A stretch of 63,990 nucleotides of DNA, counting the filler, from Folioceros fuciformis (taxonomy: Eukaryota): the NCBI GenBank assembly GCA_049999805.1. It is 5 parts of 4 records of this genome, joined end to end, with 100 filler letters (N's around TTAATTAATTAA, not from the genome) between each part and the next. Parts side by side here need not be neighbours in the genome. Positions count along the whole stretch, not along the records: positions 1 to 20,793 come from JBNGIO010006264.1; 4 more parts are not named here. The stretch is one strand, 5' to 3'. The notes beneath the pieces are model-generated. The model made no database searches, had not been told where the DNA came from, and worked only from the letters and a program-made list of their open reading frames with translations. This document shows positions 2,777-49,645 of this stretch, piece by piece; position 1 is the stretch's first letter; every line of letters starts with the position of its first letter. A program made the translations under genes and the position numbers.

Positions 2777-4306
2777 ATGGCGGGTTGGCGGCTGTTGTTC
2801 GAGGCCGTTCCCACAGTGCGATTGCTGCGGATGTTCTTGTCCAAAGCCGGGGTGGCTCCCTCCGTGAGCTTTCTGAACGTGGATGTGCGGTTGCTGGTGA
2901 CGTCGTCTTCCCGCACTCCCATTTTGAGGTGCCGATGGCGGAACGCGGAGTACGGTGAGGAGGAGATGGTGGAGGCGAAGCTGCCTCTGTGCTTAGTGGA
3001 TCATCTGGTTCCTGTCAGCGTGACGGTAAGAGCGGATCACTTGGATTGCAAATTGAAACTCCTTGCGATGGAGTCGGCACTGCTGAGCGTCTTGGAGGTG
3101 GAGGATTCGGGTGGGAAAGAAGAAACAATGGCGGTGCTCCGTTTGGAGGCAGATCTGCAGGCGATGGCGGCGCTGGAAGAGGTTGTGTTCTGGTGCAACG
3201 CGTGCTCGGCTAAGCTCATGAAGACGCCGGTGACGCGCGTTCTGGAGCTGCCCCCGGTGAACTGGCAGGAGCTGAGTGATGACTGGTATGGCGGCTGCTG
3301 TTGCGAGGACAAGTCCAGGTCCAGGTCGCTTGTTGCGCGGTGCGGCGGCTCGTTGATTCCTTCCGCAGGGACTTGCCTCCTCGGGCCTGCGTTCTGCGTT
3401 GTGGATGCCTCGGATGTGGTTGGAGAGAGGGGGTTCACGGGTATAACGCAGTTCAGAGAGCGGTTAGCCGCATGGTTGGAGCACGAATCCAGTGATGTTG
3501 CGGAGGTCGTCAATGATGTAAGAAACGGTGATGGGGAGAGAGAGGATCGAGGATGCGGTGAAGCGGGTGTCGAAGTGAGAGTACTCGACGATTTGGAACC
3601 TGGTGAAAGTCACACCCACCGTTGTCGGGCTGCGAACCTGTGGGCCGACCTCCCCGAGACTGCTGCCGTGCAAAAAAGCTTTCCTGGAAATGCTGCGAGG
3701 CTGCAAGGTGCGGAGCAGACGGGGTCCGGATGGTTGCCCTACTTGTGCCACAATTGTTCGTCATTGATAGGTTCTGTCGCAGCTCTTCAGCAGCTAGGGA
3801 ATTCCGTGCACGAGCTGCACCTTTTCAAGTGTCACATCTCAACAGACATAGCCAGTGGCAGTAGAAGCAATGTTTTCAGGTCTCACACTCCTGAAAAGGT
3901 TCTTGCCAATGAGATCCTGTCTAGGGTTCAGGGGGATGCAACTTACAAGTTTCTGGTACGCGACTTGCAGTACAAAACTCCTCTCTTGCAGCTCCTGGTG
4001 CTGAACCACGAAGTGTGGACGGGCAGCGAAGTTGTCGAGTCAGGCAGTGATGCTGCCACCGTTTCTGGATCATGTCCGACTCGTTTGCAGTCGATGATGA
4101 AAGTTGGGTTTCGTGAAACGAGCAGCCTTGCCGAATATGAGCTGAAAGGTGTCGAGGATTGGTCCCGTAAGCGAGACGTCGACGATCTTTTGATGTGGAA
4201 AGAAGACGCGAGCGACGTGGTAAAGTCTCTGCTGCATAGGAAGGAAATGGTGCCACCCTCATGTCAATCTTTTCAGCAATTTAGTATTTCCTTCATGGAG
4301 AAGTGA
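2777..4306 (+). CDS. E3 ubiquitin ligase E3D-like (HECT_2 / E2-binding family), intronless
   Basis: CxxC (CNAC) followed by RVLELPPVNWQELSDDWYGGCCC, second CxxC (CHNCSSLIG) and LFKCHI; single 509-aa ORF from the first ATG. Confidence 0.8.
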   Translation: MAGWRLLFEAVPTVRLLRMFLSKAGVAPSVSFLNVDVRLLVTSSSRTPILRCRWRNAEYGEEEMVEAKLPLCLVDHLVPVSVTVRADHLDCKLKLLAMESALLSVLEVEDSGGKEETMAVLRLEADLQAMAALEEVVFWCNACSAKLMKTPVTRVLELPPVNWQELSDDWYGGCCCEDKSRSRSLVARCGGSLIPSAGTCLLGPAFCVVDASDVVGERGFTGITQFRERLAAWLEHESSDVAEVVNDVRNGDGEREDRGCGEAGVEVRVLDDLEPGESHTHRCRAANLWADLPETAAVQKSFPGNAARLQGAEQTGSGWLPYLCHNCSSLIGSVAALQQLGNSVHELHLFKCHISTDIASGSRSNVFRSHTPEKVLANEILSRVQGDATYKFLVRDLQYKTPLLQLLVLNHEVWTGSEVVESGSDAATVSGSCPTRLQSMMKVGFRETSSLAEYELKGVEDWSRKRDVDDLLMWKEDASDVVKSLLHRKEMVPPSCQSFQQFSISFMEK

Positions 4307-4562: not shown

Positions 4563-5540
4563 TCAGTAAGCGACAACATTCAAATCAAACATTCGCGTTC
4601 CAGTCCTAGGATACCCACACTCAGCAATAACAGGAGCAGAGACTTCTGGGGAAGAACGATGCTTGAGGAAGGGTACCACGTAGTTGAAGGCTTCGAACTC
4701 CGAAATCTGCAAGTGGTTACCACATAGCGAGAGATACGTGACATTGCCAGCTTCTTCGAGGCACCTCAATCCAATCCAATCTTCCTTGTACAAGTCGGTC
4801 TCCTGAGGAGGTAGAACGGTTTTGAAGTCATTCGGAGGGTAGTAGCCAAACCAAGCTGTTTCCTTAGGGATGATCACGTTGTCACGTTCAAATTTGATGA
4901 GAACCAGGTGATGGAGCTTTGAGAAGCGAGCTTTATAGGTTGCGTTCCGGCTTCCGGGAAGCTCGTTGTTCACCTTAGGCAGGAACAGACAACCCTCGTA
5001 ATAATTCTCCAGGTCATTGGGAAGTTTCACATAGCCTGCAGGACCTAGATGATTCTGCACGTAAGTAGAATAAACCCCGTACTTGATGAGGGCATCAACG
5101 GCCATACAGACAACTGTGAGTGTACAGATGGGCACCGAGGCAGTGCCAGCATGAGGTGCAGCGAGCGTGATGAGGTTGTGCACAGGAGGCGCACCATCAC
5201 AAAGCTCAATCATGGCCCTTCCAATAATCCCTCCCTGAGACAAGCCCACCAGGTTGAACCCATTCTCCAGATCCGGAATGGCCTTCACCTGTTGGCATAC
5301 AATATCGACCTGCTTGTCGATCCGCATGAAGAAGGAATCAACGACGCCATTTCCTACTTCAATACAGTAGCCCTTGGCCCCAGTCATTGCCGTAAGGAAC
5401 TCTGTGAACTGACAAACCCCATCGTGTTTGCAGGCATCCAGGACCCCATGAAGAACAACAAACGGCAGAGGCGATACATAAGCGGACACAGCCGCCAACG
5501 ATGACAACAACACAGCTACCACCAACATCCGCCTCCCCAT
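4563..5540 (-). CDS. PPT1: palmitoyl-protein thioesterase 1-like alpha/beta hydrolase, intronless, signal peptide
   Basis: Hydrophobic N-terminus; LPFVVLHGV; GNGVVDSFF; nucleophile elbow GLSQGG; PVHNLITLAAPHAG; D..IIPKETAWFG; LYKEDWIGLR; first ATG at 5540. Confidence 0.9.
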   Translation of the reverse strand: MGRRMLVVAVLLSSLAAVSAYVSPLPFVVLHGVLDACKHDGVCQFTEFLTAMTGAKGYCIEVGNGVVDSFFMRIDKQVDIVCQQVKAIPDLENGFNLVGLSQGGIIGRAMIELCDGAPPVHNLITLAAPHAGTASVPICTLTVVCMAVDALIKYGVYSTYVQNHLGPAGYVKLPNDLENYYEGCLFLPKVNNELPGSRNATYKARFSKLHHLVLIKFERDNVIIPKETAWFGYYPPNDFKTVLPPQETDLYKEDWIGLRCLEEAGNVTYLSLCGNHLQISEFEAFNYVVPFLKHRSSPEVSAPVIAECGYPRTGTRMFDLNVVAY

Positions 5541-6205: not shown

Positions 6206-7746
6206 GTCTATGCTCTGCTTATCTACTGCCCAGGCGGGGACTGTCGCATCTATCTCCGGCTGCTTGCGTTTAGGGTAATCTAACCTTATCGATTGTTACC
6301 ATCGCTGCAGGGACCGAGGTGACGGGGCCAGGTTTTTATAGCACTTTTTTTAGAGAATCCATTCTTTCCGCGTCGGCATGTTACTGGTAACGGAAATAAC
6401 AGATCCGAATCCAGTTGGTGGACCGTCATGGGGCTCCTACTGCTCGGTGTTATTATGGCTGTTGTTTTCCGTCAATATTCCACGATGGGGTGCTCGAACG
6501 TTCGGTGCGCTGGGCGCATGGGAAGGTCCGTTTGGAGCTGTGGATGTTCGCAATTCTAGGTGATTCCGTTCTCCCATCTCGGAGAAGCTGTTAACAGGAT
6601 TTCTTTCGACTCCCCAGCATGTGGTATCTCTGGTTGTGGCTGCGTCGTTCGCTGTCGCCACCGTTCTTCGAGTGGTTTGAAGAAAGTGCCTCTGCAAAGG
6701 ATTGAGACGCTGTCAGATCATGGACTTCGGATGAGATACACGAACTATGCGGGGACCAAGCGAGAAACATATCAAACCGTCAAGACAACAGCATTCCTAA
6801 CAGCACACGACAGTTGAGGATCGCCCGTGGCCGAGACTAACCTGCCCGAGTCCATTATGAATCGTGAGGGCTGAAGCCTAGTTTCAGATCGGCCACACTG
6901 ACAAGAGTCACACGCTGCAACAAAATTGACGACGAAACAAAGCCACACAATGTGCGGAAAGCTCGAAAGGATGTGACCTTCCCTGACTTTCTGCAGATGC
7001 AAGGCATGGCCAGGAACACCGCGCCAGGCTGCTGTTCAGTCTGTTTCAGCCGTCCTACAGCCTAAATCCGAGAGGAATTCAAACGGCATGCAGCAGGTGG
7101 ACTTGTTCATAGCCCCTAAACCCTTGCCTTGGAAAGGTTGAAGCCCTGCCCAATCCGACATCGTCACACCGAGAGGAGAAGGGAGCCAATCCTCTGCACA
7201 GCTCGCCTTTTGGCGATCCCGCCCGGCCCGTCTTCTTACGGCCGGCCTGCGTCCTGCTCGTCGTCCGGGGAGCTGGTGTCTCCTCGTCAGGCAACCTGTT
7301 TCCCCTCTACTGTTGTCCATAATTTCGCCGATTAGGGAGTCTTCGTAACATCTTGGTACAAATCCAAGACTTGCCAACACCTTTGCTCCGTTCCTTCTGG
7401 AGAAAGTTCTTCACCTTTGAACCCTACACAGTAAGGTCAGAGGGTTGAGAGGGGAGGAATAGCACGGAAGCAAGAGAATAAGACACCAGAGTTGAGGGTG
7501 AACAGAGTGGAGAGTGACGAGGGGTAAACAACAAAGGTGCGGCCAGGGACAGAAGCATTCCAGGGATAGAGGAAGGTGGGGAAGGCAGGATTCTGAGGAT
7601 TCATTCTGATCACATTGTTATTACGTTTGGTGAGTCCGTGCTAGCCATCGATGTCCATGCATCAGTTTGGACAGCGATGGAGGTAATTAACTTCAACTCG
7701 AAAGCAGTACTCTAGCGCGCACACACTTGAGAACAAGGGCTAGTTC

Positions 7747-10209
7747 TTACGGTCGACCCTTACAACTGCAACAACCAGCTGCGAATCGATGCACGCGGAA
7801 CCCATCCCTTACAACTATGTCTCTCTGTTCAAGCCTAGACATGATCTCCGTGGAACTGTGGCAGTCACTGCACATTCGTAGATTCTTCGTTACCACCAGA
7901 GGTGTCCCACTCGGAGTGTTCAATAGACCAAACGCCAGAGCTAGCTTCTCAGCATGCCCGCAGAGCGCATCTTCCTTTTCCTTCTCACCCAGGGGCTTCA
8001 ACACCAACTTTGTGTGCGGTACGTGGCCTCCTTCCTGTTTTAGACGTGCATTTGTGCTCTCCACCTTCAGCGCAATATCCTCTCTCCTTTCTCCCACCAG
8101 AAACCTATGGACCTCCTTATTCACCTCAATAGTTGCCACTGCAGGTTTCTTGTTAGCTCCTACTACCACTCTCTGTGCTTCAATCCTGTCTACATCGCTC
8201 CACCGGCCTGCATCTGCATAAGCATTGGCCATGAGCACATAGGCGGGTGCCTCCAGGGGGTCCAGTCTAACAATGCTTTCAAAGCACCAGATGGCCCTCT
8301 TTAAATCCCCGTGGCTTTTGCAGGCACTCAACAACGACGTCAATCCCACAACATTACTTTGGCCCTCGCACAATGATAGCATCTTCTCTGCCTCATCTAA
8401 ATGGCCTGCGCGCCCAAGAAGATCAATCATGCAGTTGTAATGCTCAAGAGAAGGTTGGATTCCGTGTCCAGCCATGGAATCAAAGTGTCTGCGGCCGTCG
8501 TCTACCAGTCCCTCATGGCTGCATGCTGTTAAAAGGCAGCTGAAAGTGGCACCATCAGGCTGAATACCGGCAACTAACATCTCCTCAAAACAAGCTAGTG
8601 CTCTCCGACCGTTATCACAAGCACCGTAGCCAGATATCAGGGCATTCCATGTGACAACATTCTTCGTGTTCATGCTGTCAAAAACCTGGCGTGCACCCTC
8701 CACTTCACCACATTTTGCGTACATGTCCACCAAGCAGGTGCTCAACACTACGTCATCCAACAATCCTCTTTCCACAATCTGTGAGTGCAGCTGCCTGCCC
8801 TTCTGCAAGGCACCAGTGCTTGCACACGCCTTCAGGAGGCAAGCAAAAGTAAAATGGTTAGCCAAAATGAGACCTTCTTGCTCCATTTGTTCATACAATG
8901 CAAGGGCTTCTTGGCTGAGGCCTTGCTGGGAATACCCAGCAATAAGTGCCGTCCATGTCACCACATCCTTTGCAGCCATGCTGTCAAAAACCTGGCGTGC
9001 ATCTTCCAGTTCACCGCCTTTTACATACCCAGATATCAAGGCATTCCATGTCACCACATTCTTTGAGGCCATGCTATCAAAAATCCGGCGTGCATCCTTC
9101 ACTTGACCACATCTTGCATACCCAGATATCAGGGCATTCCATGTCACCACATCCTTTGTTGCCATGCCGTCAAAAACCTGGCGTGCATCTGCCAGTTCGC
9201 CACAGTTTGCATACATGTCCACAAGGCAGCTGCCAACAAACAAGTCAACAGGAATGCCACCGCGCAACACATCATGGTGCACTTTTCGGCCGGATTCCAA
9301 GTCGGCGGTAAGCGCACAAGCTTTAAGGGCAGCTACAAAGACGTGCCCATTCCCCTTCACTCCTGACCTCCGCATGTCATGGTACATTTGTATTGCCTCC
9401 TTCGGCTTCCCATGTTTAGCAAATGCAGAGATGATGGAACCCCACGTGATCACATCTGGTCTGCCTACCCTGGTGAACACATCCATGGCCTCCTGTAGTC
9501 TACCCCCACACGCATACATACGCAAGATATGGTTCCCCAAGTACCCATTCAACTCGTACCCAAGTTTGACGCTGAGATCATGAACTCTTCGCCCCAGGAC
9601 CAAATTCTTCTTAGCCGTACACAGTTTCAGCACAGTGCAAAACACGGACGGGCAAGTAGCAGACTCTGTCTGTGCTAGAGCTTCCAGGGCTCCAACGGCC
9701 TCCGCAAGCTTCCCCTGCTGACATAGTCTGCTCACGGTTGCAGCACTAACCAATCTTGCACTCCTCCCAGGTTCAGGCTTATCCAAAAAGCTAGACTCGG
9801 AAGGATAATCACCATGACCCATCTGCATATCGAAGGAAACAAGCTGCTCATCAACCCAAGCTGGCTTGAACATGCTGTTTACCCACAGCCCCTCGTCGGA
9901 GCCCTTACGCCGGAAATCAGGCGAACGGGAGCTCTTCTTATCTCGTCTGTTGTCCCACCACATGGTAGGGTCCAAAAAAAACTGCTCCCACAATTGCTCT
10001 TGCTCCTGGCGACGACCATCGTTTGACAACCCATCCCCACCCACACAGGTCATCGGAAGTGCTGGGTTCCGTACACTGCTGCACCTGGAGGCTTTGTTTG
10101 CCAGGAATTGGCCCCCTAACATGAGGTGAGCAGGAGCTCCTACAAACACACCTGTACACCCTCCAATTTGTTGGATCGACACCGGGTCGGGTTGCCACCC
10201 TGACGCCAT
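7747..10209 (-). CDS. PLS-class PPR protein with N-terminal OSB-type PDF motif, E domains and C-terminal DYW:KP (GRP-type) deaminase-like domain
   Basis: P/L/S repeats (DVVTWNALISGY...), E1/E2, KKPA box in place of the PG box, HAEKLA and CSDC zinc ligands, C-terminus CSCKGRP; intronless 820 aa. Confidence 0.92.
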   Translation of the reverse strand: MASGWQPDPVSIQQIGGCTGVFVGAPAHLMLGGQFLANKASRCSSVRNPALPMTCVGGDGLSNDGRRQEQEQLWEQFFLDPTMWWDNRRDKKSSRSPDFRRKGSDEGLWVNSMFKPAWVDEQLVSFDMQMGHGDYPSESSFLDKPEPGRSARLVSAATVSRLCQQGKLAEAVGALEALAQTESATCPSVFCTVLKLCTAKKNLVLGRRVHDLSVKLGYELNGYLGNHILRMYACGGRLQEAMDVFTRVGRPDVITWGSIISAFAKHGKPKEAIQMYHDMRRSGVKGNGHVFVAALKACALTADLESGRKVHHDVLRGGIPVDLFVGSCLVDMYANCGELADARQVFDGMATKDVVTWNALISGYARCGQVKDARRIFDSMASKNVVTWNALISGYVKGGELEDARQVFDSMAAKDVVTWTALIAGYSQQGLSQEALALYEQMEQEGLILANHFTFACLLKACASTGALQKGRQLHSQIVERGLLDDVVLSTCLVDMYAKCGEVEGARQVFDSMNTKNVVTWNALISGYGACDNGRRALACFEEMLVAGIQPDGATFSCLLTACSHEGLVDDGRRHFDSMAGHGIQPSLEHYNCMIDLLGRAGHLDEAEKMLSLCEGQSNVVGLTSLLSACKSHGDLKRAIWCFESIVRLDPLEAPAYVLMANAYADAGRWSDVDRIEAQRVVVGANKKPAVATIEVNKEVHRFLVGERREDIALKVESTNARLKQEGGHVPHTKLVLKPLGEKEKEDALCGHAEKLALAFGLLNTPSGTPLVVTKNLRMCSDCHSSTEIMSRLEQRDIVVRDGFRVHRFAAGCCSCKGRP

Positions 10210-10566
10210 CGATCGAGACCCGCTGTCTGAAGATCAGAATCTCCTCCACCAGACTATTTCAGGACGCCAGGAACTCTGTACGAGCACACCATTCCGATGA
10301 GGCCACCCCAGCGGGCTTGAATTGCAAACAAAACACTGGGAGACTTTCGGGTTCACATAGACCAAGTCCACATCAAACTCACGTCTATAACTAAATGCTA
10401 AGGAAACATTGGCATCCATGAGCAACCCCGCATTACCTCACATCTGTTTAACACACCCAAGCACAACTTCAGATCACCCTAACCACAACATAATGAACCA
10501 CAGTAGTTCTAACCATAACCAAAGCCTTCTCAATTGAAGCACATCAGCTTCTATACCCCAGAAGCT

Positions 10567-10929
10567 ATGGGCAGCGAATCCCGAAAAGAAGCTTTTCGGA
10601 AATACTTGGAAGCCAGTGGAGTACTGGATGCTCTGACAAAAGTGTTGGTAAACCTTTACGAGGAGAAAGAAAAGCCGGTTATAGCACTAGACTTCATCTT
10701 GCACAGTCTCGGAGGCTTCTCAAATGCAGAGTACGAGACTTTGAAAAATGAGAAGATTGCATTGCAAGCAAAATTCGAAGACTTGTCAAAACAACACGAG
10801 GAGGCATTAAAAAAGATTGAGGAGCTCACACCTCCACCTCCACCTGAGGGACCATTGGATCCACCTGAAGAGGATGCCGAAAAACCTGAAGAAAAGCCTG
10901 ACAAGAAAGGAAAGAAGAAAGGAAAATGA
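10567..10929 (+). CDS. MYCBP: c-Myc-binding protein (MYCBP/AMY-1, FAP174-like) homolog
   Basis: SRKEAFRKYLEASGVLDALTKVLVNLYEEKEKP..ALDFI...LGG followed by coiled coil; ATG at 10567. Confidence 0.85.
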   Translation: MGSESRKEAFRKYLEASGVLDALTKVLVNLYEEKEKPVIALDFILHSLGGFSNAEYETLKNEKIALQAKFEDLSKQHEEALKKIEELTPPPPPEGPLDPPEEDAEKPEEKPDKKGKKKGK

Positions 10930-18717: not shown

Positions 18718-20298
18718 TTAGCCTTGGTTGCCTTGCCTGTGCGGAACAGCGTAGGCAATTTTTATCGGTCTTCCGTGGACCACCTGCTGATCCAAAGCAA
18801 TGGCGGTCTCCAAAGACCTATCATCCGCAAAATCCAAATGACCGAATCCTCTAAACTCTCCAGTAGCCTTATCGTGAGCAAATCGCATCCCTGTAATCTT
18901 GCACGTCCTAAAAAAATCCCTTATCTCCTCTTCGGTCACGTCCCAGGCCAGGTTTCCGATGTACGCCGAAGTGCAGCCGTCATGTTTCTGCGGAGGCTGT
19001 TCATGTCGAGGCTTTTCTGCCTTAACCTCCTTCACCTTGGAGCGCTGGATCTTAAGGTACCGTCCCCCCATATCAGCTCCATCCAGCTCTAGAGCCGCCC
19101 TCGCCCCAGCCTCCGTCTCAAACGTGATGAAAGCTAGCCCTCGAAACTTCCCAGTATCCGGAAACAGGACGCAATCTAGCTCCTCAACGTTACCACATGG
19201 GGCGAAGTAGTCCACAATGTCATCCTCGCTCACAGAGTATGGTATCCCTCCCACCAGGATTTTCCTTTTCTCGTATATTGCCTCCACGTCCTCCCCGCAG
19301 GATCCCTCCACCGCCTGCCCCTGCCCCTCATCATCAACATGCTCCAACTTCTTCTCACCCCATCTGTTCACTCCACTCTTTTGTTTCTTTTTCTCGTTCG
19401 ATTTCTCCTTCTTTGTCCTCTCCTCATCCTTAACCTTGCCATTCCCTGCAGCATGATCATCTGTCCGTCCCTCTACTACACCGCTTCCTCCTGCGGGCCT
19501 GCACTCCTCCAAGCTCTTCCTATTAGCCCTCTTCTCCTTCTTCTTCAATCTCCTCATCTCTAACTCATCTCCATCTGCTTCCCCTGCACCGCCATCCGCA
19601 GGCTTGCCCTCCTCCAAGCTCTTCCTGTCAGCCCTCTTCTCCTCTTTCTTTAACCTCCTCGTCTCTAACTTATCTCCTCCTACTTCCCCTACACCGCCAT
19701 CCGCAGGCTTGCCCTCCTCCAAGCTCTGCCTATTAGCCCTCTTCTCCTTTTTCTTCAACCTCCTCGTCTCTAGGTCATCTCCTTCTACTTCCCCTACACC
19801 ACCATCCGCAGGCTTACCCTCCTCCGAGCTCCTCCTACTAGCCCTCTTCTCCTTTTTCCTCAGTCTCCTCGCCTCTACGGCGTCTCCTTCTGCCTCTTCC
19901 ACACCGCCGTCTGCAGGCTTGCCATCCTGCAAGCTTCTTTTACTAGGCATTTTCTTCTTTTTCTTCAATCTCGTCGCCTCTGGGTCATCTTCTTCAGCAT
20001 CTCCTACATTGCCATTCGCAGGCTTGGCCTCCTCCCATTTCCTGCTGTTACCTCTCTTCCCCTCCTCCCTCGATATCGCTGCCTCGAGGTCACCTGCGTT
20101 TGCCGTTTCCACCTTATCCGTTCCGTTCTCCTGTCTCCCTCCGTTCTCGTCTTTCTTCTTCTTCTCTCTCCCTTTCCCCTCAAATTCGGACAACGCCTCG
20201 GCTGGAACCGTCTTCCCTTGGCTAGCGAGCAATTTGCTCTCCACTCTCGGCATGGCCTGCGCCTGCTTCTGCTCTCGCCGCTTCCCCCGGGAAGTCAT
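18718..20298 (-). CDS. two-RRM RNA-binding protein, PHIP1/nucleolin-like, with charged N-terminal repeats
   Basis: RRM1 KILVGGIPY...FRGLAFITF; RRM2 AYIGNLAWD...FRGFGHLDF...LDQQVVHGRPIKIAYA. Confidence 0.8.
   Translation of the reverse strand: MTSRGKRREQKQAQAMPRVESKLLASQGKTVPAEALSEFEGKGREKKKKDENGGRQENGTDKVETANAGDLEAAISREEGKRGNSRKWEEAKPANGNVGDAEEDDPEATRLKKKKKMPSKRSLQDGKPADGGVEEAEGDAVEARRLRKKEKRASRRSSEEGKPADGGVGEVEGDDLETRRLKKKEKRANRQSLEEGKPADGGVGEVGGDKLETRRLKKEEKRADRKSLEEGKPADGGAGEADGDELEMRRLKKKEKRANRKSLEECRPAGGSGVVEGRTDDHAAGNGKVKDEERTKKEKSNEKKKQKSGVNRWGEKKLEHVDDEGQGQAVEGSCGEDVEAIYEKRKILVGGIPYSVSEDDIVDYFAPCGNVEELDCVLFPDTGKFRGLAFITFETEAGARAALELDGADMGGRYLKIQRSKVKEVKAEKPRHEQPPQKHDGCTSAYIGNLAWDVTEEEIRDFFRTCKITGMRFAHDKATGEFRGFGHLDFADDRSLETAIALDQQVVHGRPIKIAYAVPHRQGNQG
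19490..20045 (-). repeat. coding tandem repeat, 105-nt / 35-aa unit, ~5-6 copies
   Basis: EEGKPADGGVGEVEGDDLETRRLKKKEKRANRQSL; unit anchors at 19589, 19694, 19799, 19904. Confidence 0.85.
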
Positions 20299-29300: not shown

Positions 29301-32300
29301 AGTCGCTAGGTGGGGCTGAGTATTATCTTACCTTAACATATGACTACTCATGCTACACTTCAATGTACCCATTGTCAATAGGATCGACTCCAGTCTACGT
29401 GCAAGTGTAGGAGAGGAGAGGAGAGAAGAGAGGGTGGTATTGGTGATCACAACCATGAAAACAATACACATCACCACTGTCTTACTATGGAGGTCCGAGG
29501 TCTCCATTTAAGTAGTACATTTAGGGCTACACAACTTCCAGGTTCAATATGGGATAATCTACACTATCCTAAGTTCACTAATAACTAGAACTAGTCTAGT
29601 ATGAACCCAACTGGGATAACTAACACCACATGAGTTTAGCTCATATAGAGCTCGATAACTCAACACTCCCCCTCGAGCTCAACATAGCATCTGTACGCCT
29701 AACATAGCTCGGAATTTCTTCAGCTTCTCTGCTCCCATTGGCTTAGTAAATATATCGGCTATCTGCTCGTTTGTGTTGACGTACACAAGATCAATAGCTC
29801 CAGATAAAATCCTTTCGCGAAGAAAATGATAATGTATTTCAATGTGTTTTGTCCTGGCATGAAACACTGGGTTTCGCGCCAACTGTATGCTGCTAAGATT
29901 GTCACAGTAGATAACAACCTTGTCGTTGACCTGCAATCCAAAATCTCCGAGTAACTTACAAATCCAAGTCACTTCACACGCTGCCATTGCTGCGCCTCTG
30001 TATTCAGCTTCTGTACTAGACAAAGCCACTGTAGGCTGCTTCTTGCTACTCCATGTAATTGCTGCACTCCCAAGTGAAAAAATGAATCCACTTGTAGATC
30101 TACGATCAGTAACACTGCCTGCCCAATCTGCATCTGTGTACCCACACAGGTTTATTTCTAAATCTGCAACATAAAAGAGAGCATGATCCATAGTTGCCTT
30201 CACATAGCGCAACGTTCGCCTTACTGCATCCAAATGTGGCTTTCTTGGCGCCTGCATAAACTGACTTTGCAATCCCACTGTATAGTTCAAATATGGTCGG
30301 GATAGAGTGAGATATATCAAGCTACCCACAATCTTCCTGTACATTGTTGGATCTTCAAGTGCTTCACCATCATGAGCACTGAGCTTTAGATTTTGATCCA
30401 AAGGAATCGAGATTGGCTTGCACTCAACCATACCATACTAAGTTAGTACATCCGACGCATACTTCCGCTGTGACAGCCAAATGCCTGTGTTGGTTCGTAT
30501 AATTTCAATGCCCAAAAAGAACCTCAGTTCACCTAGGTCCGCCATCTTGAACTCTTGTTGTAGAAGTTCCTTGATCTGCTCCACTTGATCCAACTGATTA
30601 CCTCCAATGATTAGATCATCCACATAAATGGTCACAAAGACCAGTCGTTTTGTACTTTTGCACACATACAACGAATGATCCGCATCTGCCATGTTGAATC
30701 CGATGTGAATCAGATGCTGAGCAAGACGCTCATGCCAAGCCCTCGGGGCTTGCTTCAGTCCGTACAACGTTTTTTTCAGCTTGCACACATGATTTGGATG
30801 ATCCAAATCCTCATATCCTGGTGGCTGGTCCATGTATACTTCTTCCAGCAATTCTCCATGTAAAAACGCATTCTTCACATCCATATGATGTAGGACCCAA
30901 CCTTTCGATGCCGCTAGTGCGATCACGGTTCGAATTGTTGCCATTTTGGCAACTGGATTGAACGTCTCCTCAAAATCTATTCCATATGTCTGGGCATATC
31001 CCTTGGCCACAAGCCTTGCCTTGTACCTGTTGATACTACCATCTGCGTTGTGTTTGACCTTGTACACCCATTTGCAACCTATTGGTTTCTTGCCTTCAGG
31101 TAGTTGTACTAGGTCCCATGTTGCATTCTGATTTAACGCATTCATTTCTTCATCCATAGCATGTTCCCACTTTGTGTCTCCAATAGCTTCTTCAAAGCTT
31201 CTTGGTTCCACATCCTGTACAACCTTTGCCATATAGGCATGGTGCCTAGCTACATAGCTATCATAGGTCAACCGCTGTATTGGAACCTTCTGCCTTCCAG
31301 ATCTCCGTGGAATTGAACCACTTCCAGGGGCTGATTGAACCTCTTTTGCACCAGGTGTTTCGATTTTCGGTACACCGAATTCCTCATCCAAGCTCTGCTC
31401 AGAGTCGCTTGAATCATCCGCACCTGCACTTAGGTCTGGTATCTTTGAATCCTGGACTTTTTCCTTCCCTTTGCGAGACACAGCTGTGGAGCTCGTAGGA
31501 CTCACACTACCTCGCAACCTGCCACTCCATGGATTCTGAACATTTGTCGAGTTTGATGACGCTTGCGGTCCACTCAACACTTGTGATTGTTGACCTGCAT
31601 TGCTTGTTACCTCAGTTTCAAGCACATCAGCTACACTACTTCCTTGTACTTCAAAGTACCAGCTACCCATTTCATCAAAGACTACGTCTTTGCTTACTCT
31701 CATAGTCCGTGTACTGGGATTGTAGCACCTGTATCCTTTCTGTGTAACAGAATACCCAATGAAGACACACTTTTCTGCTTTTGGATCAAGCTTAGTCCGC
31801 AACTCATCCGGAATATGGACATAAGCAATGCAACCAAATACCTTTAAGTGTGACAAGTCAGGTTTCTTCCCTGTGAACTTCTCCTCCGGTGTTACACTGT
31901 GCACCGCTGTTGTGGAAGTTCTGTTCATGATGTACACTGTTGTGCTTACAGCTTCAGCCCAATAGTAGTGAGGCATCTTCTTCGCTGTCATCAATGCTCT
32001 CGCCACTTCTGCTATGTGCCTGTTCTTGCGCTCTGCAACTCCATTTTGTTGTGGCGTATAACGACATGAGTACTGCCGTTGAATGCCCTGTTCTGATAAG
32101 AATTTGCTGAACTCTCTGGAGAAGTACTCTCCCCCTCCATCAGATCTTAGGCATTTGATGTGCCTACCTGTCTGCTTCTCAACCATCGCCTTGAAAGTAT
32201 GAAAATGAGAATTCCTACACAAGCTGCGTGTGCAGCAGTTCCACCTCAATCAGTCATTCCACAACCAGCAGTGAACCATCCTGATTCTGATGGCGAGGAC

Positions 32301-34271: not shown

Positions 34272-37200
34272 AACGCTCGCTCTAATTGGATAATTGACTC
34301 TGGAGCATCTTTCCATGTTACTCCGCATAGGCAGTGGTTTAGCACATATGATGCTACTACAAAAGGATGTGTTCCGCTTGGAAATAACTACACATGCGAG
34401 ATTGCAGGCGTTGGTGATGTGCAGCTGAAGTTCGACAATGGATCTTCATTCGTACTGAAGGATGTTAGGCATGTTCCGAAGTTGACCAAAAGCATGATTA
34501 GCGTAGGGCAGTTGGATGACGCTGGCTACCACTGTTGGTTTGGAGATCGTTCTTGGAAGATCTCCAAAGGTTCTCTTGTGTTAGCTCGTGGATCGAAGTG
34601 TGGCACTTTGTACTCACTTCAAGTAATCACTGTCCAGGATCATGTGATTTGTGTAACGGAACATCCAAGTGTTTCCTTGTGGCATAGTCGGTTAGGACAT
34701 ATGTCTCAAAAGGAATGAAGATCGTATCTCGTTTTGGTTACATCCCTGCTTCTGACTTCTCCGATTTCTTCGTGTGTGAGCACTGTTTGTATGGGAAACA
34801 GACGAAGTCACCACATGGAGTAAGAGGTAAACACAAAAGTAAACCTCTTGAGTTGGTTCACAGTGACGTTTGTGGACCTATGCCCACTGTATCGTTAGGC
34901 GGTGCATCCTATTTTGTCACTTTCATTGATGACTTCTCATGCAAGGTGTGGATTTATCCTTTGAGGAAAAAGGATGATGTCCTGACAGTGTTTCAGAAAT
35001 TCGTTACACTTGTGCAGAATCAATCTGGCCTTCGGCTGAAGTGTCTGAGGACAAACAATGGGGGAGAGCATGTCACGAAGGCTTTCCAGTCATTCTGTGA
35101 TTCCAAGGAAATCAAGAGAGAACTGACTGCGCCGTATACTCCTCCCCAGAATGGTGTGGCCGAATGGAGGAACAGAACCATCCGGGAGAGGATGTGTAGT
35201 TTGTTGTCAAACTCTGGATTGCCTAACGGATTTTGGGGAGAAGCAGTAGTTACTGCAGTGCATCTTATTAATAGACCTCCTAATAGGGCTGTGGATGAGC
35301 AGGTTCCAGAGGGGATGTGGTCTGGAAAGAAGCCGTCAGACAAGCATCTACGAGTGTTTGGCTGCGAGGCATACTACCATGTTCCGAAGGAGTTTCGGGA
35401 CAAGTTGGCACCCAAGTCCAAGAAATGTATTTTTCTTGGCTATGGTGAATTTGGTGAGATGGGATACCATCTATGGGATCCACAAGCTAAGAGGATGGTT
35501 CGCAGTAATGACATGTTCTTCAATGAGACCAAGATGCACAAGAAGCCTACTCCAATTGTAGAAGTGCGACGGGTGGTCTTTGAAGCAGATGGACTTGACC
35601 GTCCCGCACAGGTTGAACGTCGTGCTATGCAGGAATAAGTTCCTCCACTTGTAGAAGAGGAGAGAGTGCAACCAGCTCCGGTCGAGGCGCCAGTGCTTCG
35701 TAGGTCAGGAAGGATCTCACGTCCTCTTGACAGGTATGTTGCATCTCTTGATTATGTCATGCTGACGGATTGTGGGGAGCCCTCTTGTCATGTCAGTGAC
35801 TAACAACAACAAGTGGGAGAAGGCGATGCAGTCGCAGATGGATTCGCTCCACAAGAACCAAACTTGGGAGTTGGTTCGGTTGCCTAAGGGCAAGAAGGCG
35901 TTGCCATGCAAATGGGTGTATAAGATGAAGGACATACCCCATTATGGCAAACCCAAGTACAAGGCACGATTGGTTGCTAAGGGTTTTAAGCAACAACAAG
36001 GTATTGACTTTGATGAGATTTTCTCGCCAGTTGTCAAAATGACCACCTTGTGATGTGTTCTTGGTCTGGTTGCGAGGCACGACATGGAACTTATCCAGAT
36101 GGATGTGAAGTCGGCATTTCTACATGGTAATCTCCAGAAAGAGGTATACATGCAGCAACCAAAGGGTTTCATTGAGAAGGGCAAAGAGAGTCTAGTGTGC
36201 AAGTTAAAGAAGAGCCTTTATGGTTTGAAGCAGGCACCTAGGGAGTGGTATTTCAAATTCCACTCCTTTATGCTTTCTCAAGGCTACAAACGTAGCGATG
36301 AGGATCATTGCCTCTATACGAAGCAAGCTAAGGATGGAAGCTTGCTCATTCTGGTCCTCTATGTGGATGATATGCTAATTGCTAGGACTAACAGTGATGA
36401 GATTTCAGCATTGAAGTCAAAGTTGAATGGTCGCTTTGACATGACAGACTTGGGAGAGGCAAGCCATAGTCTTGGCATGCGTATTCGTCGAGACAGACAG
36501 AAGCATTTGCTTTACTTGTCTCAGACTGAATACATTAACAAGGTGCTTCAACGTTTCAATATGGAGAAGGGGAAGGTATTGAGTACTCCGTTGCCTCCAT
36601 ATGTGAAACTTTCGAGCAAAGATTGCCCAAGCTCTGCGGAGGACAAAGCTGAAATGGAGAAGGTTCCATACTCATCAACTGTGGAGTTTGATGTATGCAA
36701 TGATTGCTACGCGTTCTGACATTGCGTTTGCAGTGGGAGTGGTTAGCAGGTTTATGTCAAACCCTGGCAAGAAGCATTGGGAGGCAGTGAAAGGACTTCT
36801 GAGGTACTTGAATGGTACAAAAGCTTTGTGCATATGTTTTGGTAGTGAAGATGCATCTGTCGTGGGATATACGGATGCTAATTATGTAGGGGATATGGAC
36901 AAAAGGAGGTCCACATCCGGTTATGTCTTCATGTGCACTGAAAGGGCAGTCTCATGGTGATTGCGTTTGCAATCATCCATAACGCTATCTACCACAGAGG
37001 CCGAGTATGTTGTAGCGATTGAGGCATGCAAGGAAGCCATGTGGCTTGCTCGTTTAGTGGGAGATTTGGGGATCAAGGTTGAGTTGCCAGTGTTGCATTG
37101 TGATAGCCAGAGTGTTATCCAATTGGCGAAGAATCCAGTGTTTCATGCGAAGACCAAACATGTGGAAGTGAAGTATCACTTCATTCGAGGGGTGTTGGAA

Positions 37201-41183: not shown

Positions 41184-42296
41184 TCATTTTCGACGAGACC
41201 ACCTCCAATCCTCTGTATCGCCACATATTTGACTTGCAGACCTCATTTGTTCTTCTTCGTCGTATGCAACAGCGTCATATTCCTCTTCAGATCCTTCCCA
41301 CCGACGGTGAAAATCATCGTCACTGTTGCCGCTCCTGTCACTAGAATCCTCTTCGTCCTCCTCGTCAGGATAGTCATTTCTTGGATTGTCTGCGGCATTC
41401 GAGTCCTCACTGTCATGGTCGGAATCAACCGCATCGAAGACATAAATGTCCTCCTCCTCCTCGACTTCCACAGTGGGGTAGGCGGCATGGTGGTCTTCCT
41501 CGTCTGTCTCTTCCTCCATAGTGTACACATCATAAACATAATCGTCGGCTTCACTTCCATCATCTGCGCATCCTGCATCCTGCACTGCAGACTGAGTTCG
41601 TGCTGGAGCACAAGTAGAGTGCAGATCTGCAAGCGCAGCTGGCACCAGCTCCCGTAACAGCGGAAGATAATTACGCAACAACGGGTCTACTTGAGCTGTT
41701 TGCTTGGCTTTCTTCCGTTTGGCGGCCTTTGCAGCTGCCTCTGCTTCCACGTCCACCCGAACAACATCATACAGCTGGAAAAGCTCCGCAGCCGCGTCCT
41801 TCTTCTCTTCCCCATCAAGAACCCCTCGTCTGCTGCGCCAGACCTGCTGGAACCTGGCAGCCCTGGCCAGTTCATCATGCTGTGCTTTCTGTCCTCCAGT
41901 AGGTGACCGAGGGCGGATGTTGGGCTTACGCTGCTCCTGCCGCCGGTTCCTTTTATCTACCTTCAGCTCCTCGATCGATTCCAACAAAACTGCATCCCCG
42001 AGGGCAGACGAGGTCACAGTCTCTAGCAGGGAAAACAAATGTTTTGTTCCCGTCGCTTCACCCGCATCAGCTTCAGCTTCTGCCAGACTTAACCCTTCCA
42101 CACCCGATCTCCTCTTGAGCGGCCTATCATGAACCTCCAGCCACAGAGCCTCAATGGGAGGCACATCCCGCTGCCTCTTGACACGTACCACTATAGGTTT
42201 CGATGGTTTCGGAGGATCGAAGCCCCCCACGTCCTGCTGACCACCCTTGTGGTCTTCTGATACATCCTCCACTGCACCTCCTCCTTGACACGCCAT
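41184..42296 (-). CDS. RDM4: RDM4/DMS4 (IWR1-domain) RNA polymerase-associated factor, intronless
   Basis: KPIVVRVKR..., WLEV..RPLKR, ARFQQVWRSRRG, YDVVRVD, DDYVYDVY, DSEDSNA.DNPRNDYPDE. Confidence 0.88.
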   Translation of the reverse strand: MACQGGGAVEDVSEDHKGGQQDVGGFDPPKPSKPIVVRVKRQRDVPPIEALWLEVHDRPLKRRSGVEGLSLAEAEADAGEATGTKHLFSLLETVTSSALGDAVLLESIEELKVDKRNRRQEQRKPNIRPRSPTGGQKAQHDELARAARFQQVWRSRRGVLDGEEKKDAAAELFQLYDVVRVDVEAEAAAKAAKRKKAKQTAQVDPLLRNYLPLLRELVPAALADLHSTCAPARTQSAVQDAGCADDGSEADDYVYDVYTMEEETDEEDHHAAYPTVEVEEEEDIYVFDAVDSDHDSEDSNAADNPRNDYPDEEDEEDSSDRSGNSDDDFHRRWEGSEEEYDAVAYDEEEQMRSASQICGDTEDWRWSRRK

Positions 42297-44878: not shown

Positions 44879-47800
44879 AGACTGTTGCTCTCTGTTCAGT
44901 CGCAGGAAGACTGGAAACACAAGAAAGGGAGTTAAGCTGGATCTGGAGTAGGCGTTCCGCCTGCTGTAACTCAGAATACCTTTGCCAAAGTCTACAAAGG
45001 GCAAAGAGCTGAGAAAAGAATACACACTACGTCGCGGCCAAGGGCGTGAAGATCTGTTAGTCTTTAGTTGCTCTACCCTTGGTCTTCGGCTTTCCCTCTG
45101 AAGAGAACGGCACACTCTGCCTGTTGGACTTGACAGGGTTGGGTTGAGACCCACTCACAGCGGCTAATGAATGTGGAGACATCGCCGACAGGGGAGCTCG
45201 ACTGCTCTTGGAGCTTCCAACTCTTTGTCCAGCACTCGGGGCCTTGGCAGTTGCTGCACTTTTCGGCTGTGAGGAGCACAAAGCACTCCTCGGAGCTCCC
45301 TTAACAGCTCTCGATGAACCTGGAGCCCTGCCACTTTCTTTGTTCACGGTACTACCACTCTTGTCTGGCTTGGCCCAGCCATTCACACGACCGGCAGAAC
45401 CCACAGACCCTCGCAACCCACATGCATTTCCTCGAGAAGGTACTGATTTTCCCAAACTTGGAGATGCCTCCGTCACTTGGCTCAAGCTTTTTCTCTTCTC
45501 ACTCACAAGAGCTTTGTTGGGAGGCACGTTGCCACCATCCAAACTGTCCCTGCCTTCACCTTGACTGATGGCAGAGGCCCCAGCAATCCCTCCTCCCAAG
45601 TTACCAATCTTCATACTTTTTGCAGCCCTCTGAGTTGGGGCTCCAGGATATGGGTCAAATCCTCGCCGCTTGTTTAATATGGAAGCTGGAATTTCGTAAG
45701 GTTCATTTGACTCCTTCATCTGTATTAAGGCCAAAGCTCCTTCTATAATAGAAGGAGACCAAGGTGCTGCAGCAACGAGAAACAGCAATCAGTACCGCAC
45801 GTCAATCGTTTCAAGCACAAATGTGAACTCCAACACCCATGTCAGATGCATACCTTCCTCTGGCTCTGCTGAAGATTTGAGCTTCAGCTCTGCCTCTTCC
45901 AAGGAGGAATCAGCAACGGCAGCTCCTACTTCGTGCTCCGCCGTACTGACATCCACATCTTGCTGCTTGTTCCGTAGGATCACTCCTGCTGCTGCACAGT
46001 CTGCAACTCCTGAGAGAGTACTCGACAGCAATTTACTGTCACCATCAGTTATTAATCTGTCAATATGACCGTTGGTCGCTATTTCAGCCACCATCGGGCC
46101 TGCAAGGACCTTTCCACCCTCAGTAGGTGAAGCTGCGAAGCTTGGCCCTGTTTCTACTTCCATGGGAGAAGCACCATCAGCAAGAAGCGTACTGACTCCT
46201 TGCGGCCCCCCATAAGCATGGGTTCTTGTGCACCTTTCAGCCATGGAAGTCTCATCACCTGCTGGATGGCCCTGTGCACTATCAGGAACAGGAGAGGTTG
46301 CTCTAGACCCTGGATCCTTATCTAATGAATCACCTATCCCAAGTTCCTGCAAGTCTAAATGACCAGATGCAAACAATCCACTCTGTGGCCAACAGTCACT
46401 TCGTGCAGGATCACACCGGATCCACGGACGCTGACAACCCTTTCCCAGCTTCTGAGGAGATTGGTCAATATCTGCTTCTGATTTGAAGGAGCCCATGGGG
46501 GGCCGTGAAAAAGGCTGGAGTGGAATCCTAACGCAACTCAAGCCCATAGGTGAAATAGCAGGAGATGCACACTCCACATGGCGGTAACCTAGATCCGCAT
46601 GCGACGGTGCAGACGGAGCGGGAGAAAGCTTCAGGCTCTCGTGAAACTCGTTAACAGATGATAGGCGCAGGTGACTGATGTCAAAGCCTTGGCCCGACTG
46701 TGCTGGTGCCTTCTGCGCAAAAGGATCAGGGCAAACCTGAAACAAACCGAGGACAAGGTCATCATGTCGGGCTCGGCACATGCACAACTTCAGCCCTCTC
46801 TCGAAAAAGGAGAAGAAAAAAAAAACAGAATTCCACGGCCACGAAACATGTAGCTGTACCTCAGATGCAGGAGCCATGTCCTGATCACCCTGATTGTCTC
46901 GTTCTGAGCTTGCATCCACAGTTCGCCCATTAGGGTCGTTTTCATCTGCTTGTACAGGCGATTCAAGGTCAAACAGCATCCTTTGCGGCCGCATTTTCCC
47001 AGTGGATTTAGTGGCCATGATTGTTGAGTCCCCTGGTTTTGACGCAGTTGCGTCCAGTGATGATCGTCTGACAACAGTTGCCGACTGCCTGTGGGAAGGT
47101 GGGAGAAAGGCCAAGATGCTGCTGATGTGCTGGTCCAGAGGGACCTCGCCATCACTTCTCTTTGACATCCCACCAGAGACTGCCGCAGAGCTCACGCTTG
47201 GTTGTGAGCTCCGGGCAATGAGCTCAGCCAGAGGTATGTCGGTAATATGGTGGGAGATATCAACAGGCTTAGTCTTGAGTCCGTACACATCTGGAAAAAA
47301 CAGGAACCGAAATTGGAAAGTGTCCACTAATTCATGACACATATGTTGTTTGTCACATGGTGTGCACAAGTGGATGAGGTTGGGGGGTTATACATACCGA
47401 AGGCACCCGACCGAGGTGCATTTGTGCCGCAATTGACAGCACTGATCTTAGGCAGGGCGTCAGACGCAGTGGTCGTAGGAAGTTGAGTTGCTCGTTTATC
47501 ACCACGTCGGGATGCTGGGGCGCTCAGCTTTTTGACAGCCCCCTTGTCTACTCTGTCTGCTTGGATGACAAGGGTGACGCGTGTAAGATATGAAAGCCAA
47601 GCTTAAGAGCAGACGAGTAGCGCAAGGGAGGCAGAGAGACAACAAGGGATGATTAATCAGGGACAAAAGCAGACTCACCACTGCTGATGGCACGCTGGCG
47701 GCCTCCACCGCTTGCTCTCGGTGCCGGTACTGTGATACAGTCCAGCAAGCCTGCGGGCAATCCTTCTTCCACCGCTGGCTGAGCTGTTCTGCTCCTCTTC

Positions 47801-48100
47801 CTGCTCCCACCACCCCCTCTACTGCCCCTGCCTCCACCATCTCTCGCCTTCTTCCCCTTGTCAGGTGCAGCCTCCACAGGCAGCAGGGGTGCGGCCACAT
47901 CTCCGGGCTTGGGCAATTGAGCCACGATGACAGCACCAGGGGACGCCTTGACGACGTGGTGGCAGTGAGCGCCGTTGAGCGGCTGCGGAGGCAAATACGC
48001 CTGTAACGCGGCTCTTCTTGCAATCTCAGGCAGAGCAGCTGCGCTGGTTCCTGAACACCACAAGCACGGACAAGTGAACGGCCTGCGGAGCGCATTACGC
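44879..48100 (-). CDS. uncharacterised multi-exon, S/P/A-rich plant protein; boundaries uncertain, both ends near gaps
   Basis: Long same-strand ORFs separated by GT..AG introns; short conserved-looking blocks AVIVAQLP, RRGDKR, GAFD|VYGLK...DISHHITDIPLAEL. Confidence 0.55.

Positions 48101-49614: not shown

Positions 49615-49645
<31 letters not shown>

Follow-up and report, generated by a model that had tools for sequence, protein, structure and literature searches.

What is a motif of organellar DNA-binding proteins doing at the front of a candidate RNA-editing factor? The question arises from a gene in a stretch of DNA from Folioceros fuciformis (assembly GCA_049999805.1), 63,990 nucleotides of joined parts and filler, which is called the window here. 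A sequence-only reading had reported that positions 9829-9999 encode the PDF motif of plant organellar single-stranded DNA-binding (OSB) proteins, fused to a pentatricopeptide repeat (PPR) protein with a DYW:KP domain. The strand, absent from that reading, is the minus strand. Translation of the interval gives aa 71-127 exactly as quoted there, with EQLWEQFF at 71-78, WWDNR at 84-88, and PDF at 97-99. The frame runs for 820 aa with its stop codon and no internal stop, and its ATG at 10209 is preceded by an in-frame stop 9 codons upstream. Pfam identified 9 PPR stretches, an E motif, and a DYW_deaminase domain in the translated protein, so that a single frame does join the PDF segment to a PLS-E-DYW:KP protein (Table 1).

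Table 1. Layout of the PDF-PPR gene in the window, from the N-terminus of the encoded protein to its C-terminus, below the whole frame.
Feature	Position	Strand	Basis or remark
ORF, PDF-PLS-E-DYW:KP protein, 820 aa	7747..10209	-	Open frame
Presumed organellar presequence, aa 1-62	10024..10209	-	Inferred; Met 1, 30, and 53 all precede the PDF motif
PDF motif, aa 67-128	9826..10011	-	OSB-only HMM, 70.8 bits, E 3e-24; encloses the 9829-9999 reported earlier
Linker, aa 129-155 (~25 aa), predicted order low	9745..9825	-	pLDDT
PLS-class PPR array, aa 156-632	8314..9744	-	Pfam PPR, PPR_1, PPR_2, PPR_3; modeled as helical repeats from aa 156 on
E motif, aa 633-695	8125..8313	-	Pfam PF20431, E 3.5e-11, 43.6 bits
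DYW:KP deaminase-like domain, GRP subgroup, aa 687-820	7750..8151	-	Pfam PF14432 at aa 728-818, E 5.3e-32, 109.9 bits; motifs

Among the hornwort DYW:KP proteins, the subgroups DRH and GRP have been defined (PMC9478123, available text). The protein encoded in the window shows the features of the GRP subgroup. E motifs and a DYW deaminase domain come after its PPR repeats, the KP box (KKPAVATIEV, aa 687-696) replaces the PG box, HxE (HAE, 752-754) and CxxC (CSDC, 780-783) are present, and the C-terminus reads CSCKGRP. The gene thus encodes a PPR protein of the PLS class that has a DYW:KP domain of the GRP type and one intact N-terminal PDF motif, and U-to-C editing is its candidate activity.

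Is the N-terminal segment a true PDF motif? An HMM was built from 184 PDF units, all of them taken from proteins with an SSB domain, and it matched the segment with the score given in Table 1 (E computed with Z=1). This establishes the segment as a homolog of the OSB motif, as had been claimed from its sequence pattern. Reviews, in their available text, describe the PDF motif as ~50 aa with a conserved Pro-Asp-Phe signature, and this signature lies at aa 97-99 within the 62-aa match. All invariant or near-invariant columns are retained (W74, P81, W84, W85, D86, R88, K91, P97, D98, F99, L108, W109, P116, W118, and V119). A tblastn search found one PDF copy in the window, at 9805-10032. With aa 60-135 as the query, phmmer recovered 635 proteins at E<=1e-3 from 1.84 billion representatives, and 158 of these at E<=1e-10, a similarity that chance does not explain. 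Matches with OSB names included "protein OSB1, mitochondrial-like" (Populus nigra, E 9.6e-21) and "organellar single-stranded DNA binding protein 3" (Euphorbia peplus, E 1.3e-19).

Among the best 150 of the 635 phmmer matches, 72 contained an SSB-like domain, 14 contained PPR repeats, 64 contained neither, and none contained both. In a set of 183 proteins, the SSB-like profile matched 75, none of which had PPR repeats, and an SSB-like OB fold was absent from all 43 PPR-bearing proteins examined. OSB proteins (OSB1-4 of Arabidopsis and their orthologs) share the core W..F..P..WWDNR..K....PDFKHK...E.LW.....P.WV with the window protein. In these, the PDF motif follows the SSB-like OB fold, an order that the sequence-only reading had stated and that is seen in OSB-type matches where the Pfam SSB domain scores over its cut-off upstream of PDF (P0016 and P0029). 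The window protein in contrast lacks the OB fold and has its PDF motif N-terminal to a PPR array. We therefore do not regard it as an OSB protein, since by Pfam it contains the PDF motif but no SSB-like OB fold.

PDF-PPR proteins were found elsewhere in Diphasiastrum, Ceratopteris, Adiantum, Pteridium (transcript ORFs), Sphagnum compactum, S. jensenii, and Calypogeia fissa, and the combination thus recurs in predicted proteins of a liverwort, mosses, a lycophyte, and ferns. It appears to be absent among the seed-plant matches examined. The layout throughout is a presequence, 1 to 3 PDF units, and a PLS array in one frame, with one unit, placed at aa 63-130 in this comparison, in the window protein, and the C-termini across the subfamily carry a PG-type DYW domain, a KP-type DYW domain, or none. 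Compared with 7 PDF-PPR relatives, the PDF segment is 38-62% identical and the PLS array 29-47%, and the presequence and linker show no significant similarity to these relatives. Named homologs have been filed as "hypothetical protein" or "pentatricopeptide repeat-containing protein".

A tree was built from PDF units linked to PPR arrays (56) or to SSB domains (70). The label needs only 4 changes on this tree, versus a mean of ~41 when shuffled, and a constraint placing the 56 PPR-linked units in one clade was not rejected (AU p 0.934), with a likelihood above that of the free quick tree. The PPR-linked units thus cluster apart from those of OSB proteins, and their sequences are compatible with a single origin. 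The PPR-linked units also carry a signature that includes 2 extra residues at aa 113-114, where 78% and 50% of the SSB-linked units have gaps. The window unit falls in a set of 12 units with a support of 95, of which 9 are PPR-linked and 3 come from short proteins. It differs from most PPR-linked units at a few positions, for example at R101 (H in 85%) and D105.

Catalogues of PLS-class PPR editing factors have relied almost wholly on the repeats and the C-terminal domains. Since Pfam contains no PDF model, the N-terminal module escapes routine domain annotation; Pfam returned zero families for aa 1-140 of the window protein, even at E<=1. A word-indexed search with aa 60-135, restricted to proteins of 451-1435 aa, likewise produced no candidate, which we attribute to a limitation of the index because the exhaustive HMMER search recovered such proteins. 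The architecture appears to be undescribed in the open literature searched, as had been supposed, and Gutmann 2020, Gerke 2020, and their supplements could still mention PDF.

An important question is what the PDF motif might contribute to an editing factor. Zaegel 2006 is the primary paper on ssDNA binding by PDF-bearing OSB proteins. Reviews state, in the text available, that the PDF motif of OSB1 alone suffices to bind ssDNA, that OSB1 and OSB2 prefer ssDNA to dsDNA or RNA, and, in one case, that OSB2 is a tetramer. The PDF unit of the window protein was modeled as a compact unit in which two helices flank three short strands, with a pLDDT of ~90, followed by a stretch at aa 125-154 (model residues 71-100) in which blocks of pLDDT lie at 50-64. 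The unit would thus fold on its own as a small domain, joined by a flexible linker to the N-terminal end of the PPR array, and this end would face 5' on the bound RNA. PDF may have an accessory role in which it binds single-stranded nucleic acid irrespective of sequence. Such binding could increase the affinity or on-rate of the protein for that part of the transcript which lies upstream of the PPR footprint, or could keep the factor at the nucleoid, the site of ssDNA and nascent RNA; in either case, PDF would stand outside the U-to-C chemistry itself. Of these options, an additional grip on RNA is not favored, since the OSB motif reportedly prefers ssDNA to RNA. An accessory single-strand nucleic-acid binder or nucleoid tether is the most likely role for the motif, and we consider it moderately probable.

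The PDF unit could instead be a module for protein-protein interaction or oligomerization that recruits OSB or other nucleoid proteins, for example, or pairs editing factors. The tetrameric state given for OSB2 in the available review text would fit such a role, as would a small helix-strand-helix unit that has many conserved Trp, Phe, and Pro residues and is unlike solved nucleic-acid-binding folds. Foldseek with the 84-aa model returned nothing from the PDB at E<=0.001 (best E 2.2), and VIA-align of the same model against 48,161 chains returned nothing at Z>=5 (best Z 4.0). A PDB sequence search with the PDF segment gave 0 matches at E<=10, and a feature search of the ESM Atlas gave nothing usable. 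These blank fold searches demonstrate neither a new fold nor a function. Against an interaction module, the reviews, as far as their text is available, assign ssDNA binding to the PDF motif itself, and the invariant basic residues R88, K91, and K102 adjoin the aromatic residues in a way that is consistent with nucleic-acid contact. We therefore consider a purely interacting role unlikely.

It is also conceivable that PDF lies outside the mature functional protein, as a presequence or 5' relic ahead of a downstream start, or that this is a pseudogene copy. The family is huge, with thousands of similar contigs per run, and some copies are likely dead; the few departures from the PPR-linked majority noted above could be taken in the same sense. 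The 820-aa frame is however entirely open, every invariant PDF column is intact, and Met codons beyond the start of the PDF core occur only within or behind the motif. Annotated genes and fern transcript ORFs also show the order of presequence, PDF, and PLS array, and between relatives the PDF motif is conserved at least as well as the PLS array. This pattern makes a relic or dead copy highly improbable.

Contigs from four runs (of 22, all presumed to be RNA) of four organisms were 85-99% identical to the window along 7694-10137 and covered the PDF part, which speaks for its presence across the family. They numbered 35-92 at 9832, 43-92 at 9916, and 75-115 at 7799 in the DYW domain, and no contig spanning PDF to PPR was present among the listed pieces of these runs. 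In X1, one of these runs, the only listed pieces identical to the window were 9207-9491 and 9947-10329. Similarity across the family drops sharply above 10137, where the coding strand has an acceptor-like TTTGTAG, so that the actual N-terminus may differ from that given by the first 23 codons of the frame. A revision of the N-terminus near 10137 would leave the PDF motif in the main exon.

The remaining possibility is that PDF is a dedicated helper of U-to-C editing, specific to DYW:KP proteins, that supplies a function required in cis for amination. The window protein is itself of the KP/GRP type, and PDF was found on 2 of 3 GRP-tailed matches from a DYW-seeded search (P0187 and P0293, but not P0195). 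The named PDF-PPR proteins are mostly from lycophytes and ferns, lineages with U-to-C editing (PMC9478123, available text). PDF is however not a speciality of DYW:KP proteins, as the sequence-only reading had raised as a possibility, since DYW-ended PG-type proteins of Sphagnum compactum, Calypogeia fissa, and Diphasiastrum also bear it, as do many PLS models without DYW. The comparison of KP-type and PG-type proteins that this reading had proposed showed no enrichment, with PDF on 3/15 versus 8/28 in one sample (Fisher p 0.72). When the DYW domain alone was used as the query, PDF occurred on 3 of 25 matches with non-DYW C-termini and on 0 of 52 others. PDF is dispensable for many relatives, since the other 22 of 25 and all 52 of 52 lack it. 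Truncation does not explain its absence, because six of the 22 (P0322, P0323, P0324, P0296, P0330, and P0333) have 87-121 residues before their first PPR match. The designer GRP proteins KP2 and KP3, which have no PDF, edit U to C in E. coli at ~26% and ~22% (PMC9478123, available text), which speaks against the helper function in cis that had been suggested earlier. A role of PDF as a dedicated helper required for amination is thus very improbable.

Among the nearest relatives, truncated models included, PDF accompanies GRP tails in 3/4 and DRH tails in 1/10, which is a hint.

The window protein can be set beside other PPR proteins with accessory domains, such as PPR-SMR proteins, PRORP with its NYN nuclease, and PPR4 with its RRM. 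These likewise combine a PPR array with a separate nucleic-acid-related module, and in the window protein this module is an OSB-type PDF motif at the N-terminus of a PLS-class editing factor. With the hornwort GRP-subgroup DYW:KP proteins, on which KP2 and KP3 were designed, it shares the PLS array, E motifs, KP box, HxE, CxxC, and the terminal GRP. The available text on those proteins mentions no N-terminal PDF, and the designer versions begin with a thioredoxin/His tag and PLS motifs (PMC9478123).

A wider reading, which we offer tentatively and regard as rather unlikely in its full extent, is that the PDF-PPR proteins form a subfamily of ancient standing among the organellar editing factors of land plants other than seed plants. 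In this subfamily, an OSB-derived module that binds ssDNA would serve as a nucleoid anchor and couple editing to transcription or DNA transactions. If this reading is true, the anchor points could be the ssDNA of transcription bubbles, R-loops, or intermediates of replication and recombination, and U-to-C editing by the GRP-type protein of the window would be included in the coupling. In its boldest form, the DYW enzyme would reach single-stranded DNA itself.

The GRP-based designer U-to-C editors perform poorly (~22-26%) and were built without the natural N-terminal module, according to the available text (PMC9478123), which gives the motif a possible bearing on engineering. More broadly, the lineages in which this motif of DNA maintenance is found again and again on editing factors are exactly those whose organelles show very heavy editing. 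The PDF-PPR proteins offer a testable handle on the role of PDF outside OSB proteins, and on whether editing factors in organelles find their substrates at the nucleoid or co-transcriptionally, or in the free RNA pool.

The window protein is encoded by an uninterrupted ORF of 820 codons, in which nucleotides 9829-9999, the interval singled out by the sequence-only reading, correspond to codons 71-127, and the translation reads exactly as had been quoted there, with EQLWEQFF at aa 71-78, WWDNR at aa 84-88, and PDF at aa 97-99. Pfam finds nine PPR stretches, an E motif, and a DYW-family deaminase domain in this protein; aa 1-140 match no family, not even at E<=1. The C-terminal domain is KP-type, with KKPAVATIEV at aa 687-696, HAE, CSDC, and a CSCKGRP end. 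DYW:KP proteins of hornworts comprise DRH and GRP subgroups, named by their last three residues (PMC9478123, excerpts), and by this naming the KP box and the CSCKGRP end make the window protein a GRP-type DYW:KP protein. The first ATG of the ORF has an in-frame stop nine codons upstream, and the methionines at positions 1, 30, and 53 are all N-terminal to the PDF motif. In the true gene model, codons 1-23 may turn out to be intronic or part of a 5' region, which makes the N-terminus doubtful, but the PDF unit would be unaffected either way.

An exhaustive phmmer search of 1.84 billion representative proteins with aa 60-135 as query returned 635 proteins at E<=1e-3, with 158 at E<=1e-10 and 16 at E<=1e-30, many of them with several matched stretches (up to 13 per protein). 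Among the best 150 of these 635, an SSB-like domain is present in 72 and PPR repeats in 14, the two occur together in none, and 64 have neither, these being mostly short proteins or motif-only arrays. Ten non-PPR matches were scanned with Pfam; SSB was found above the cut-off in P0016 and P0029, N-terminal to the matched PDF units, and below the cut-off in P0014, P0041, and P0002, and the remaining five of the ten had no Pfam SSB match. By their source names, P0041 is "protein OSB1, mitochondrial-like [Populus nigra]" (E 9.6e-21) and P0046 is [quoted passage not shown] (E 1.3e-19). An HMM of the OSB PDF motif, built from 184 units of SSB-bearing proteins, matches aa 67-128 of the window protein significantly (70.8 bits, E 3e-24, single target). 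The window segment served as the query that retrieved these units, but what marks them as OSB units is the independent SSB domain together with the source names. All invariant or nearly invariant columns of two PDF alignments are retained in the window protein. The HMM score, these columns, and the matches named OSB1 and OSB3 confirm what had been proposed, that the segment is homologous to the OSB PDF motif. The definition of OSB proteins in an excerpted review is an OB-fold linked to PDF motifs; the window protein has a PDF motif without an SSB fold and is therefore not itself an OSB protein. Some database proteins among the phmmer matches (P0002-P0012) consist almost wholly of PDF units, 5-13 of them in tandem, and a Kingdonia uniflora protein of 1160 aa has 13 matched PDF stretches and a weak SSB match.

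The PDF-PPR fusion is not confined to the window protein. All 14 PPR-bearing proteins among the best 150 of 635 have 1-3 PDF units directly N-terminal to the PPR array, and they come from the lycophyte Diphasiastrum complanatum (P0103, P0101, P0134, and P0076), the ferns Ceratopteris richardii (P0112), Adiantum capillus-veneris (P0088 and P0050), and Pteridium aquilinum (P0095, P0093, and P0124), the moss Sphagnum compactum (P0100), and contigs (P0004, P0107, and P0085). Since the Pteridium ORFs are those of assembled transcripts, PDF and PPR are on one mRNA in a fern. In a second search with the whole window protein as query, 120 PLS proteins among the matches listed were examined together with the query, and a PDF unit was scored as present at >=40 bits. 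It was found in 33 of these 121 proteins, a sample biased by picking candidates by words from the query's first 500 residues, PDF included. The carriers are 24 proteins of Diphasiastrum, two of the liverwort Calypogeia fissa, one of Sphagnum jensenii, two JGI-sourced, three Logan-sourced, and the window protein. None of the seed-plant proteins among the matches listed (five Ginkgo, four Cryptomeria, and one Buddleja) has a PDF unit, nor has any Funaria or Ceratodon protein among them.

A PPR array and its bound RNA run parallel to each other, the N-terminal repeats contacting the 5' end of the target site. With moderate confidence, we infer that the PDF unit has an accessory role, binding single-stranded nucleic acid irrespective of sequence on the 5' side of the PPR footprint, where it would either raise affinity for the transcript or hold the factor at the nucleoid with its ssDNA and nascent RNA. 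In the excerpted review, the PDF motif of OSB1 is sufficient for ssDNA binding, and OSB1 and OSB2 prefer ssDNA over dsDNA or RNA; this reported preference favors the tethering version. The main alternative, that the PDF unit is a protein-interaction module, appears unlikely to us.

It is very doubtful that the PDF unit is a non-functional relic, since the segment is 38-62% identical to seven PDF-PPR relatives versus 29-47% for the PLS array. The presequence and linker of the window protein have no match in these seven. AlphaFold2 runs with 31 and 38 aligned sequences gave a compact PDF unit (pLDDT about 90) in which two helices (aa 63-79 and aa 117-130) flank short strands located at about WWD (aa 84-86) and aa 99-101; aa 125-154 are poorly ordered in the model (pLDDT 50-64), and the PPR solenoid follows from aa 156. 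The PDF unit is thus predicted to fold independently on a flexible linker. No similar solved structure was found at the thresholds used, a result that is silent on function either way.

The sequence-only reading was right that an OSB-type PDF motif is fused to a candidate PPR editor, but its link to DYW:KP domains and reverse editing is not supported. In the biased 121-protein sample, PDF is present in 8/28 PG-type proteins, 3/15 KP-type proteins, 18/59 models ending without a DYW domain, and 4/19 unclassified proteins, and no enrichment in KP over PG is demonstrable (Fisher p 0.72). In the protein from Sphagnum compactum, the PDF-PLS-E-DYW architecture is complete, the box is PG, and the last residues are DYW. 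A search seeded with aa 687-820 only, and so blind to the N-terminus, gave 77 proteins; PDF occurs in three of the first 25, all 25 with non-DYW C-termini (P0187 and P0293 end in GRP, P0247 in DRH), and in none of the other 52, where most named proteins are from seed plants. Among the 22 KP-like proteins that lack PDF, several come from small contigs and are ORF calls with a short N-terminus, but six (P0322, P0323, P0324, P0296, P0330, and P0333) have 87-121 residues before the first PPR match and are still PDF-less. There is a hint, in very small numbers, that PDF goes with GRP tails (3/4, window protein included) rather than DRH tails (1/10). PDF-less designer GRP proteins are reported to reach about 26% and 22% U-to-C editing in E. 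coli (PMC9478123, excerpts). Because PDF is found with every DYW class, and both PDF-less KP proteins and editing PDF-less designers exist, PDF is neither restricted to nor required by KP proteins, and a unit dedicated to U-to-C chemistry is highly improbable.

In a FastTree phylogeny of 393 PDF units, the window unit falls in a set of 12 (support 95), nine PPR-linked and three from short proteins, and of 20 PPR-linked units, 17 share a single 27-unit clade (support 87). On a second tree, which combined 56 PPR-linked units with 70 drawn at random from the 184 SSB-linked units and left out units from proteins with neither domain, the PPR/SSB label requires four changes versus a shuffled mean of about 41. 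A tree constrained to hold all PPR-linked units together was not rejected (AU p 0.934), and its likelihood is above that of the free tree because the quick free search missed it. These trees, of low resolution at 65 columns, are compatible with one ancient capture of PDF by PPR proteins but do not prove it. A signature is common to PPR-linked units, R..EQLWQEFFSDPSQWWDNR plus an extra two residues (aa 113-114) where 78% and 50% of SSB-linked units have gaps, and the window unit has it.

Thousands of contigs from four sequencing runs of four coded organisms, runs whose RNA nature is only guessed, match the gene at 85-99% identity. Between 7694 and 10137 their depth sums to high values, and outside either end it drops more than hundredfold; 35-92 contigs cover place 9832 and 43-92 place 9916 in the PDF part, and 75-115 cover place 7799 in the DYW domain. 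These are not gene counts, but they show numerous close paralogues, spread over several related organisms, whose PDF-coding segment is continuous with this family. An acceptor-like TTTGTAG/GAGCT on the coding strand at 10138-10142 (-) coincides with the upper limit of family-wide contig similarity. A second GRP-type DYW:KP PPR gene is cut by the window end, its N-terminus lying outside; it has an E motif, DYW_deaminase, a KKPAVASIEV box, and a CSCKGRP end, and is 84.5% identical to the first over the C-terminal 264 residues (92.6% in the DYW part).

The window is nuclear plant DNA and contains Ns, retroelement ORFs of the copia and gypsy types, and ordinary nuclear genes. A 131-aa ORF with no Pfam family at E<=1e-5 is divergent from the PPR gene and lies about 325 bp from its ATG; the two would have a short intergenic or promoter region in common.

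Features of the window and of the window protein
Feature	Position	Strand	Remark
PDF-PLS-E-DYW:KP ORF	7747..10209	-	820 codons, uninterrupted
E motif	aa 633-695	-	Pfam
DYW-family deaminase domain	aa 728-818	-	Pfam
131-aa ORF	10534-10929	+	
Second GRP-type DYW:KP PPR gene	63193-63990	-	
HECT_2 (E2-binding) protein	2777-4306	+	long single ORF
Palmitoyl-protein thioesterase	4563-5540	-	252 bits; long single ORF
Two RRM domains, Lys/Glu-rich repeat N-terminus	18718-20298	-	long single ORF
Copia-type RVT_2 ORF, retroviral SH3-like domain	29679-32186	-	
Integrase-like ORF	34715-35638	+	
Iwr1-like protein	41184-42296	-	long single ORF
N runs (X in ORF translations), assembly gaps	about 47499-48455	-	ORFs across unreliable
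N runs (X in ORF translations), assembly gaps	about 48975-49997	+	ORFs across unreliable
Gypsy-type RVT_1 fragment	55828-56580	+	

The sequence-only reading knew of no characterization of the architecture, and none turned up in the open-literature texts covered: searches on the PDF motif, OSB papers included, gave no mention of a PDF-PPR fusion, and organellar single-stranded DNA, pentatricopeptide, and DYW together gave no match. OSB, PDF, and ssDNA are absent from the text of a 2026 kingdom-wide editing-factor survey (PMC13386178), as are OSB and single-stranded from that of the Anthoceros angustus genome paper (PMC7027989). OSB and DYW co-occur in an Arabidopsis PPR localization survey. PDF-PPR proteins are public already, labelled "hypothetical" or as plain PPR proteins. 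The window protein, a candidate PLS-class editing factor whose N-terminal module derives from OSB proteins, belongs to a wider unannotated subfamily.
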